This document shows positions 16,589 through 17,325 of a stretch of DNA of 64,000 nucleotides, one piece after another. Position 1 is the first letter of the stretch. Each line of letters starts with the position of its first letter. Origin of the DNA: Escherichia coli (lineage in GTDB: Bacteria; Pseudomonadota; Gammaproteobacteria; Enterobacterales; Enterobacteriaceae); NCBI RefSeq assembly GCF_001677475.2, contig NZ_CP015229.1. One strand, given 5' to 3'. The notes under the pieces were generated by a model. The model was not told the DNA's origin. It saw nothing but the letters and a program-made list of their open reading frames with translations, and searched no databases. A program made the position numbers and the translations under genes.

Positions 16589-17325
16589 TTCCTTTCAAAT
16601 GAAACGGAGCTGCCATGCTCCGTTTACTTCGTCATTATTTTTACTTTGTTCCCGCGCAGTTATCAAAAGCAAAAGGAATAGGTAAAAATATTCTTCTCAA
16701 ATTACAGTTAGTTATAAGGATTTCCTTAACTGCTTCTCCTCACCATCATGTTATTTTCGCCACATCATAATCCTGGGCTTGCTGAAGAATAATTGAAATG
16801 ATATTAGTAATTCCACTGCCTTTGGTAGAGGAAAGTGCTAAATAATAATCAATTGTTAAATTATTGTGCATTTCACTACTGGAACTGTAATCAGAAAAGA
16901 GAGACATGCTTAACCAATCTCTATTTGATTGAATTGAAAGATGTTTGTTAAGACATGGATGCAAGCTATAGATTCTGATACGGTCAATAAAAGAGAATTG
17001 CTTAACAATTTTGCAAAATGTATTGGCGAGTAAGAACCGCATTTGGTACTTTCCGGGCAACCGCCAGACGATTCTTTATTGGTAATGAGAATAATTAACA
17101 ATTAAAGAACGGCGCGAAAGAATAATGTGTCTCGACAGGGGAGACACAGTACGAATCGACATAAGGTGATCGTCTGAATCACCAGAATAAATAAAGTCGG
17201 TGATAGTAATACGTAACGATAAAGTAACCTGACAGTAGAAAGTCTCCGAGCCTGTGCAGGGTCCCAATCCGGGATTACACATGCTGGTTAATACCAGTAA
17301 TTATAATGAGGGAGTCCAAAAAACA

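Follow-up and report, generated by a model that had tools for sequence, protein, structure and literature searches.

Organization of the ychE-oppA intergenic region

The window (the whole stretch of Escherichia coli DNA that was analysed, 64,000 nucleotides) carries the genes adhE, ychE and oppA in the arrangement that is characteristic of Escherichia coli. The relevant coordinates are as follows:

12789..15464, minus strand: adhE (from the list of open reading frames, ORFs, of the window)
15941..16588, plus strand: ychE (from the same ORF list)
17326, plus strand: ATG of oppA (the translation starts MTNITKRSL...)

The gap between ychE and oppA thus runs exactly from 16589 to 17325 and comprises 737 bp. 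According to a crude count of the gaps between ORFs, it is one of the three largest in the window and the most AT-rich among the large ones. Its G+C content is 0.37 (0.49 in the window as a whole) and is lowest, at 0.315, in the segment 16800-16999. This is in agreement with the initial annotation, which had reported around 740 bp of AT-rich DNA between the two genes. A search of the gap against Rfam at a permissive threshold yielded only chance-level matches to a plant miRNA and a Listeria sRNA (E = 0.55-0.82), and Pfam gave no match for four ORFs taken from the gap.

The part of the gap that directly follows ychE contains two features:

16602..16625, plus strand: putative ychE terminator hairpin, AAACGGAGC-UGCCAU-GCUCCGUUU, followed by an interrupted U-run
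16626..16748, no strand: AT-rich spacer, poorly conserved (identity to the window 0.26-0.51 across 76 other species)

The terminator hairpin that had been proposed on inspection of the sequence was recovered as a stable, G+C-rich structure straight after the ychE stop codon, with a folding energy of -14.9 kcal/mol (z = -4.55) that was equalled or bettered in none of 200 shuffles. A hairpin of -8 kcal/mol or lower within 90 nt of the ychE stop was present in 75 of the 77 aligned sequences (see below), with stems that differ in sequence. The hairpin was missing from the output of a terminator scan because its U-run is imperfect, being interrupted (GUUUACUUCGU); the tail that follows it reads UUUACUUCGU, and the tails in related species are richer in U. 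Transcription of ychE would end at this hairpin and be followed by around 120 bp of AT-rich spacer that is presumably free of constraint. Given that the hairpin folds as well on the minus strand, bidirectional action is conceivable, and on basis of the predicted folding it could terminate transcription from either side.

Conservation within the Enterobacteriaceae

The ychE loci of 80 different species were fetched. The set with oppA downstream consisted of 79 loci, representing 76 of those species and three E. coli genomes, and the alignment was made of 77 sequences, namely the window and the 76 other species. Within the 79 loci, which range from Escherichia to Raoultella and Buttiauxella, the gap measures 664-878 bp with a median of 762. 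Considering that its length has been kept throughout, the long gap is ancestral and has been maintained in the Enterobacteriaceae. The level of conservation varies along the gap:

16626-16748: weak; spacer following the terminator of ychE
16749-16868: strong; P1 promoter with the start (~54 nt) of its transcript
16869-16985: weak; central P1 leader
16986-17058: strong; P2 promoter, TTGGCG-18-TACTTT with a TG ahead of the -10
17126-17165: conserved; leader stem-loop together with the RNase E site
17183-17207: conserved; pairing site of MicF
17280-17314: conserved; region of the ribosome-binding site

The conserved blocks coincide with features that are treated below, namely the two promoters, the sites for RNase E and MicF and the ribosome-binding site. 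The conserved sequence follows promoters and leader elements and not any reading frame.

The same data bear on the idea that the AT-rich stretch was left behind by mobile DNA or by horizontal acquisition, a decayed gene for instance. Such an origin would fit with the local drop in G+C content to 0.315, with the reported binding of H-NS (PMC3946193) and with the repeated landing of insertion sequences in the region. Nevertheless, the presence of the gap at the same position, with a similar length and with alignable blocks in 79 loci implies that it is ancestral and not acquired. Moreover, the frames that were tested showed no Pfam match or distant protein homology, and the substitutions did not follow a coding-type pattern. 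We therefore consider an acquired remnant extremely improbable.

Promoters and the P1-specific part of the leader

The oppA gene of E. coli K-12 has two confirmed transcription starts, P1 at +1 and P2 at +246 (Carrier, Lalaouna and Masse 2023, PMC9988348). The K-12 features were placed to the base by matching the oligos EM5064, EM1320 and EM4528 of that study to the window. The two starts, the RNase E site, the MicF site, the translational enhancer and the binding of Lrp and H-NS have thus been described in the literature for K-12, and their putative positions in the window follow from sequence identity. The features from the P1 promoter onwards are:

16749..16814, plus strand: oppA P1 promoter region (conservation 0.67-0.93)
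16779-16784, plus strand: P1 -35 hexamer TTGCTG (assigned by reading the sequence)
16802-16807, plus strand: P1 -10 hexamer TATTAG, TATTAT in K-12 (assigned by reading the sequence)
16815, plus strand: P1 start, +1 (end of oligo EM5064, 'Rv P1_oppAprom')
16815..17325, plus strand: 5' untranslated leader of oppA from P1, 511 nt (anchored by oligos EM5064 and EM4528)
16826..16868, plus strand: near-invariant block, +12..+54 of the P1 transcript (conservation across the alignment)
16869..16985, plus strand: fast-evolving central P1 leader (identity 0.25-0.56)
16986..17059, plus strand: near-invariant block with the P2 promoter (conservation 0.64-0.92)
17023-17028, plus strand: P2 -35 hexamer TTGGCG (assigned by reading the sequence)
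17044-17045 and 17047-17052, plus strand: P2 extended -10, TG and TACTTT (assigned by reading the sequence; spacing 18)
17060, plus strand: P2 start, +246 (by arithmetic from +1 = 16815)
17095..17123, plus strand: promoter-like TTAACA-17-AAGAAT (promoter scan; same hexamers in PMC3946193)

The leader from P1 makes up about 70% of the gap. Transcription from P2 would start 245 nt past the P1 start and yield a leader of 266 nt.

The -10 box of P1 differs between K-12 and the window. Oligo EM5064 matches positions 16781-16815 with one mismatch, which is located at 16807. A G is found at this position in all 77 aligned sequences (the window and the 76 other species), and the TATTAG hexamer is present in 5059 of the 5426 complete E. 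coli genomes. The variant with a T (TATTAT) occurs in 341 E. coli genomes, and a sample of 25 of these consisted nearly completely of K-12 laboratory derivatives. The G-to-T change at 16807 thus appears to be private to K-12 and would improve the -10 box of P1. The final T of the -10 hexamer is the most critical base for recognition by sigma-70, and for that reason the strength of P1 as reported may be specific to the K-12 lineage; judging from its TATTAG hexamer, P1 may be weaker in the window than in K-12. The dominance of P1, as characterised in K-12, may consequently not hold for natural isolates such as this strain.

The P1-specific part of the leader consists of two near-invariant blocks around a variable centre. 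The first block (16826..16868) includes the CTAA sequence at 16838-16841 that is the insertion point of IS5U in the MG1655 reference. In the divergent Escherichia lineages L006, L007, L008 and L030, the central part (16869..16985) has for the most part little similarity to the window. Analysis of 16815-17065 with RNAalifold gave no consensus structure, and the blocks at 16826-16868 and 16986-17059 are for that reason read as elements at the level of the DNA, most likely promoter or regulator sites.

Several other candidates were followed up. A long-range helix (16830-16843 with 17041-17054, and 16850-16859 with 17002-17011), taken from the minimum-energy fold of the window itself, was rejected: at least 13 of its 14 pairs were kept in only 5 of the 77 sequences and the mismatches were uncompensated (T-T in 70 and C-A in 39). 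The 9-mer TTAACAATT, found at 16851, 17002 and 17095, was likewise discarded as a regulator motif, as a triple of this kind is seen in 6% of random sequences with matching composition; the middle copy, at 17002, differs in most genera. No match to the Lrp consensus (YAGHAWATTWTDCTR, up to two mismatches) was found in the gap. A scan for ArcA-like direct repeats gave two overlapping matches with two mismatches each (16843 and 16854), and the number of such matches over the window was at chance level. A search for a small plus-strand ORF or leader peptide revealed no frame with an excess of synonymous changes in the conserved blocks.

Genomic SELEX has assigned a 'constitutive promoter' TTAACA-17-AAGAAT as well as H-NS binding to the spacer between ychE and oppA (PMC3946193), and the -10 part of the corresponding site in the window (17095..17123) is not conserved between genera. 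For the oppA promoter, a strong Lrp signal in ChIP-seq and repression by Lrp have been described (bioRxiv 10.1101/276808). The binding of H-NS and Lrp to the AT-rich DNA would set the level of oppA transcription.

The shared 3' part of the leader

The remaining part of the leader is common to the transcripts from P1 and P2 and holds a dense array of features:

17126..17148, plus strand: leader stem-loop, +312..+334, with near-invariant loop (G)ACAGGGG (folding and covariation)
17155..17160, plus strand: RNase E processing site, +341 (oligo EM4528 begins ATCGACATAAGG at 17155)
17165..17183, plus strand: covarying hairpin between the RNase E and MicF sites (compensatory double changes in 5 of 7 pairs)
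17186..17207, plus strand: MicF sRNA pairing site, +372..+393 (mapped from PMC9988348; conservation 0.87)
17208..17230, plus strand: AU-rich putative translational enhancer, directly 3' of the MicF site (PMC9988348, coordinates converted here)
17228..17260, plus strand: conserved leader hairpin CCUGACAG...CUGUGCAGG (compensatory changes in 4 of 7 pairs)
17284..17297, plus strand: conserved hairpin CUGGU-UAAU-ACCAG (compensatory changes in 2 of 5 pairs, with 25 sequences at one pair)
17308..17314, plus strand: oppA Shine-Dalgarno sequence GAGGGAG, near-invariant (read directly; 11 nt before the ATG at 17326)

The stem-loop at 17126..17148, located just 5' of the RNase E site, shows compensatory double changes in 8 of 8 pairs. 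Its folding energy is -12.2 kcal/mol (z = -4.07), and 91.7% of the cells of the alignment are paired, as compared to 73.2% in shuffles and 31-69% when the partners are slid. The cells include 45 G-U/U-G combinations versus 12 C-A/A-C combinations, a bias which points to the plus-strand RNA as the molecule under selection.

The old 'P3' of K-12 oppA (+341) was found to be a site of processing by RNase E (PMC9988348). The sequence AAUCGAC at 17154-17160 is invariant in the family and matches oligo EM4528, which makes it the probable RNase E site of the window; cleavage at 17155 would occur in both oppA leaders. The site is predicted to form a helix with part of the MicF site (17155-17160 with 17196-17201, GUCGGU; alignment columns 6-11 with 53-58). 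At least 72 of 73 sequences have this helix without any change, and for that very reason it yields no evidence in the form of covariation. MicF pairs with +372..+393 of the K-12 leader (PMC9988348). The best predicted duplex between the leader and the 5' 29 nt of MicF covers +350..+394 and ends in the published site, with an energy of -20.3 kcal/mol versus a mean of -14.0 (sd 2.2) kcal/mol for shuffled leaders.

Past the MicF site, K-12 has a translational enhancer of 23 nt that is AU-rich, and deletion of +399..+413 lowered translation by 46% (PMC9988348). The same study located the action of GcvB and Hfq at or just upstream of the oppA ribosome-binding site; the hairpin at 17284..17297 lies just upstream of that site in the window. 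The structured 3' leader would thus combine the MicF site, the AU-rich enhancer, the Hfq and GcvB sites and a distant Shine-Dalgarno sequence.

The conservation of this part could also reflect the release of a stable, Hfq-associated sRNA from the oppA 5' UTR that acts in trans as a sponge of MicF, a function that is compatible with a role of the gap in the regulation of oppA. Precisely such an RNA, OppX, derives from the orthologous 5' UTR of Salmonella (Matera et al. 2022, as cited in PMC9988348), where according to the same citation it occurs as OppX-L, -M and -S of 410, 190 and 109 nt. Across the family, hardly any variation is seen in the MicF site and in the structure around it, and both are conserved in the Salmonella loci L013 and L014. 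In addition, an Hfq-dependent 'ychE-oppA' sRNA lacking a terminator was derived from RNA-seq of E. coli, as far as the citations of Raghavan et al. 2011 in PMC6505713 and PMC4070566 convey. Both this RNA and OppX point to the sense-strand leader. However, according to PMC9988348 the stable fragment was not detected in E. coli K-12, and no Rfam family matches the region. The window does have the conserved MicF-complementary site in the oppA 5' UTR. An OppX-like function in this strain is conceivable, though we consider it rather unlikely.

The antisense open reading frame

Two ORFs within the gap are relevant with respect to existing gene annotations:

16746..17060, minus strand: antisense ORF, judged non-coding (104 codons from TTG, 98 from the ATG at 17042)
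16615..16770, plus strand: ORF of 51 aa that overlaps the spacer

The former had been noted in the initial annotation as a minus-strand ORF of 104 aa, and it is indeed present, with a TTG start, in the ORF list. The additional remark that it lacks a Shine-Dalgarno sequence is nearly correct; taken strictly it is not, as on the minus strand a weak GGAAAG precedes the internal ATG (17042) by 6 nt. The overlap of the ORF with oppA features comprises the P1 promoter and 246 nt at the 5' end of the P1 leader.

The annotation of this stretch by NCBI's pipeline is variable. It placed a 'hypothetical protein' in the gap in 22 of 30 sampled genomes; of three annotated records that were inspected, two had the antisense ORF, started at the internal ATG (98 aa), and the third had a plus-strand ORF. 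Among genomes the pipeline thus calls the 98-aa antisense ORF, the plus-strand 51-aa ORF instead, or nothing. The RefSeq entries WP_001211520 and WP_001211521 ('hypothetical protein') represent the same frame as the antisense ORF of the window, and the protein clusters P0002 and P0003 contain 309 and 1282 member sequences, respectively. All 40 protein matches (51-100% identical, 58-143 aa) were labelled Escherichia/Shigella or unlabelled, apart from one Enterobacter hormaechei. The ORF is unannotated in the curated K-12 record NC_000913.3. Such varying annotation is what ab initio calls typically produce where a stretch is otherwise empty, and gene finders probably choose the antisense ORF because nothing else is annotated there.

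It could be argued that the ORF (98-104 aa) nevertheless represents a real young gene, specific for E. coli/Shigella, which arose de novo opposite the P1 promoter and leader of oppA. If so, its expression would be coupled to P1 activity by transcriptional interference or antisense pairing. Besides the recurrent hypothetical-protein calls and the weak GGAAAG before the ATG, this is favoured by the fact that the frame is uninterrupted in the window as well as in the three E. coli genomes that were retrieved, and by the ychE hairpin, the minus-strand fold of which lies about 120 nt past the stop of the ORF. Also, when the gap was shuffled 5000 times with its dinucleotides preserved, only 3.0% of the shuffles had an ORF of 104 codons or more on either strand (4.8% had an open frame of 109 codons or more). 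Given the many intergenic regions that are covered in a genome scan, a frequency of 3% is unremarkable. The minus strand is relatively poor in stop triplets (5.0 per 100 nt versus 7.1 for the plus strand), and in other species 39% of the orthologous gaps contain a minus-strand open frame of 100 codons or more, which differs in position and in frame.

The comparison between species speaks against a gene. Conservation of the frame in related species, which the initial annotation had put forward as a check, was found to be absent, and the non-coding reading is thereby supported. The frame is broken by stops or frameshifts in all five Escherichia loci outside E. coli that were compared (L004, L006, L007, L008 and L030): the closest lineage (93% identical) has a change of CAA to TAA at codon 21, and the four further lineages have several stops and one-base indels. 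A co-located open frame was found in none of the other genera. Within most E. coli the ORF is intact, as is expected at 1-2% divergence with or without selection, and the differences amount to four non-synonymous and two synonymous ones, a roughly neutral ratio based on six changes, which are too few for a test. Over the 76 species, the synonymous fraction in the frame of the ORF was 0.20 for an expectation of 0.20, 19 variants created a stop, and an excess of synonymous changes was seen in none of the frames.

The composition and the surroundings of the ORF are in line with this. The G+C content at codon positions 1, 2 and 3 is flat (0.34, 0.35 and 0.34), where the median for the third position in real genes is 0.53, and none of the 119 segments of equal length taken from the real genes of the window scores as low in codon usage as the ORF (-0.30 per codon). 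Pfam gave no match for the encoded protein. A scan of the minus strand revealed no promoter-like site upstream of the ORF, and a terminator-like hairpin (17148..17126 on the minus strand, the reverse of the leader stem-loop) is situated between oppA and the ORF start.

As far as can be judged from sequence data, all tests of the antisense ORF as a gene turned out negative or neutral. Most likely, the frame is open by chance on a strand that has few stops, and we regard a young gene as very improbable. The 'hypothetical protein' that NCBI's pipeline assigns to this position in many genomes of E. coli is best regarded as a probable false gene call.

The gap as probable regulatory region of the oppABCDF operon

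Taken together with the covarying plus-strand hairpins, the family-wide conservation pattern and the lack of a coding signal, all observed in the present analysis, it is highly probable that the gap constitutes the regulatory region of the oppABCDF operon, comprising P1, P2 and a long leader, and that the antisense ORF is a chance frame. The initial annotation had proposed an extended oppA promoter and 5' leader instead of a gene, a view that is upheld by the mapping of the K-12 features, the conservation, the covariation and the coding tests.

The region corresponds to the P1/P2 promoters and 5' UTR of oppA in K-12 (Igarashi et al. 1997; PMC9988348), being the same locus with the same flanking genes. 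The gap is 99.05% identical to that of a K-12 derivative; there are seven single-base differences with K-12, including the G instead of T at 16807. The K-12 oligos for P1, for the P2 construct and for the +341 RNA match the window, and the MicF site, the enhancer, the hairpins and the Shine-Dalgarno sequence of K-12 are all present. The biology of the region is therefore already known. It is among the better-studied leaders of the enterobacteria, as a known target of GcvB, MicF, Hfq, polyamines, RNase E, Lrp and H-NS, and the finding as such matters little. Three elements, namely the stem-loop at 17126-17148, the block at +12..+54 and the block upstream of P2, are under strong constraint and had no assigned function in the literature examined.

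Insertion sequences

The gap is a recurrent target of insertion sequences. The region lacked contiguous coverage in 92 of 5423 genomes. IS2 has been recorded in this gap for strain W3110 (PMC2072959), and an element of the ISSen4 family is present near 16978 in NCTC122. In the MG1655 reference, IS5U has been inserted at the equivalent of CTAA 16838-16841, as was established by reading the junctions; the window differs from that reference in that it is free of the IS5 insertion.

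Variation of promoter P1 and of the ychE-oppA gap among E. coli genomes

The -10 hexamer of promoter P1 (16802-16807; start at 16815, taken as +1) reads TATTAG in the window, whereas it is TATTAT in E. coli K-12, the differing base being 16807. A G at this position was found in all 77 aligned sequences (the window and 76 other species) and in 5059 of the 5426 complete E. coli genomes, and a T in 341 of these genomes; nearly all of the T carriers sampled (n=25) were K-12 laboratory derivatives. As P1 has been characterised in K-12 only, and the -10 hexamer of K-12 deviates, the reported strength of the promoter may be specific to that lineage. 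For the 1.1 kb between 16400 and 17500, no match above 99.4% to the window was obtained among the complete E. coli genomes of the collection, and the bases at 16953, 17109, 17112 and 17236 were unlike those in all E. coli genomes compared (n=3). The window may stem from Shigella or from a lineage of E. coli that the collection does not cover.

The ychE-oppA gap (16589-17325) is a repeated target of insertion sequences (fetched loci L084 and L085), including:

CTAA 16838-16841 (+24 to +27), IS5U, within the P1 leader, in the MG1655 reference
near 16978, IS3 element of the ISSen4 family, in strain NCTC122

In W3110, an IS2 element has been reported in the gap (PMC2072959). A contiguous match to the gap region was absent in 92 of 5423 E. 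coli genomes.

The RefSeq annotation of the gap also varies among E. coli genomes (loci L001-L003). Some genomes carry no ORF call there at all, and in others the following are called, both of which look like false calls:

16746-17042, minus strand, ORF of 98 aa
16615-16770, plus strand, ORF of 51 aa, starting inside the loop of the ychE terminator

Conserved structures in the leader

The RNase E cleavage site AUCGAC (17155-17160) is predicted to form an invariant helix with GUCGGU (17196-17201), which is part of the MicF pairing site, so that MicF binding and RNase E processing could affect each other. Given the invariance of both arms, covariation speaks neither for nor against this helix. 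The invariant AAUCGAC of the RNase E site comes after a stem-loop (17126-17148), which displays strong covariation and a near-invariant loop, (G)ACAGGGG. No assigned function for this stem-loop was found in the literature surveyed; speculatively, its G-rich loop is similar to a Shine-Dalgarno sequence or a GGA-type protein-binding motif.

Other features of the window

Elsewhere in the window, a tandem repeat adjoins a tRNA gene:

5341-5899, tandem repeat, 178-bp unit, 3.1 copies, 97% matches
5881-5965, minus strand, tRNA-Tyr gene

The repeat presumably resembles those of the tyrT region in K-12; a second tRNA-Tyr gene was not found within 4500-6500. Finally, a small ORF lies 30 nt upstream of ychE:

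15857-15910, plus strand, ychT, 17 codons (MLSKGVLSARLFNLIYG), as in the K-12 annotation (b4771)
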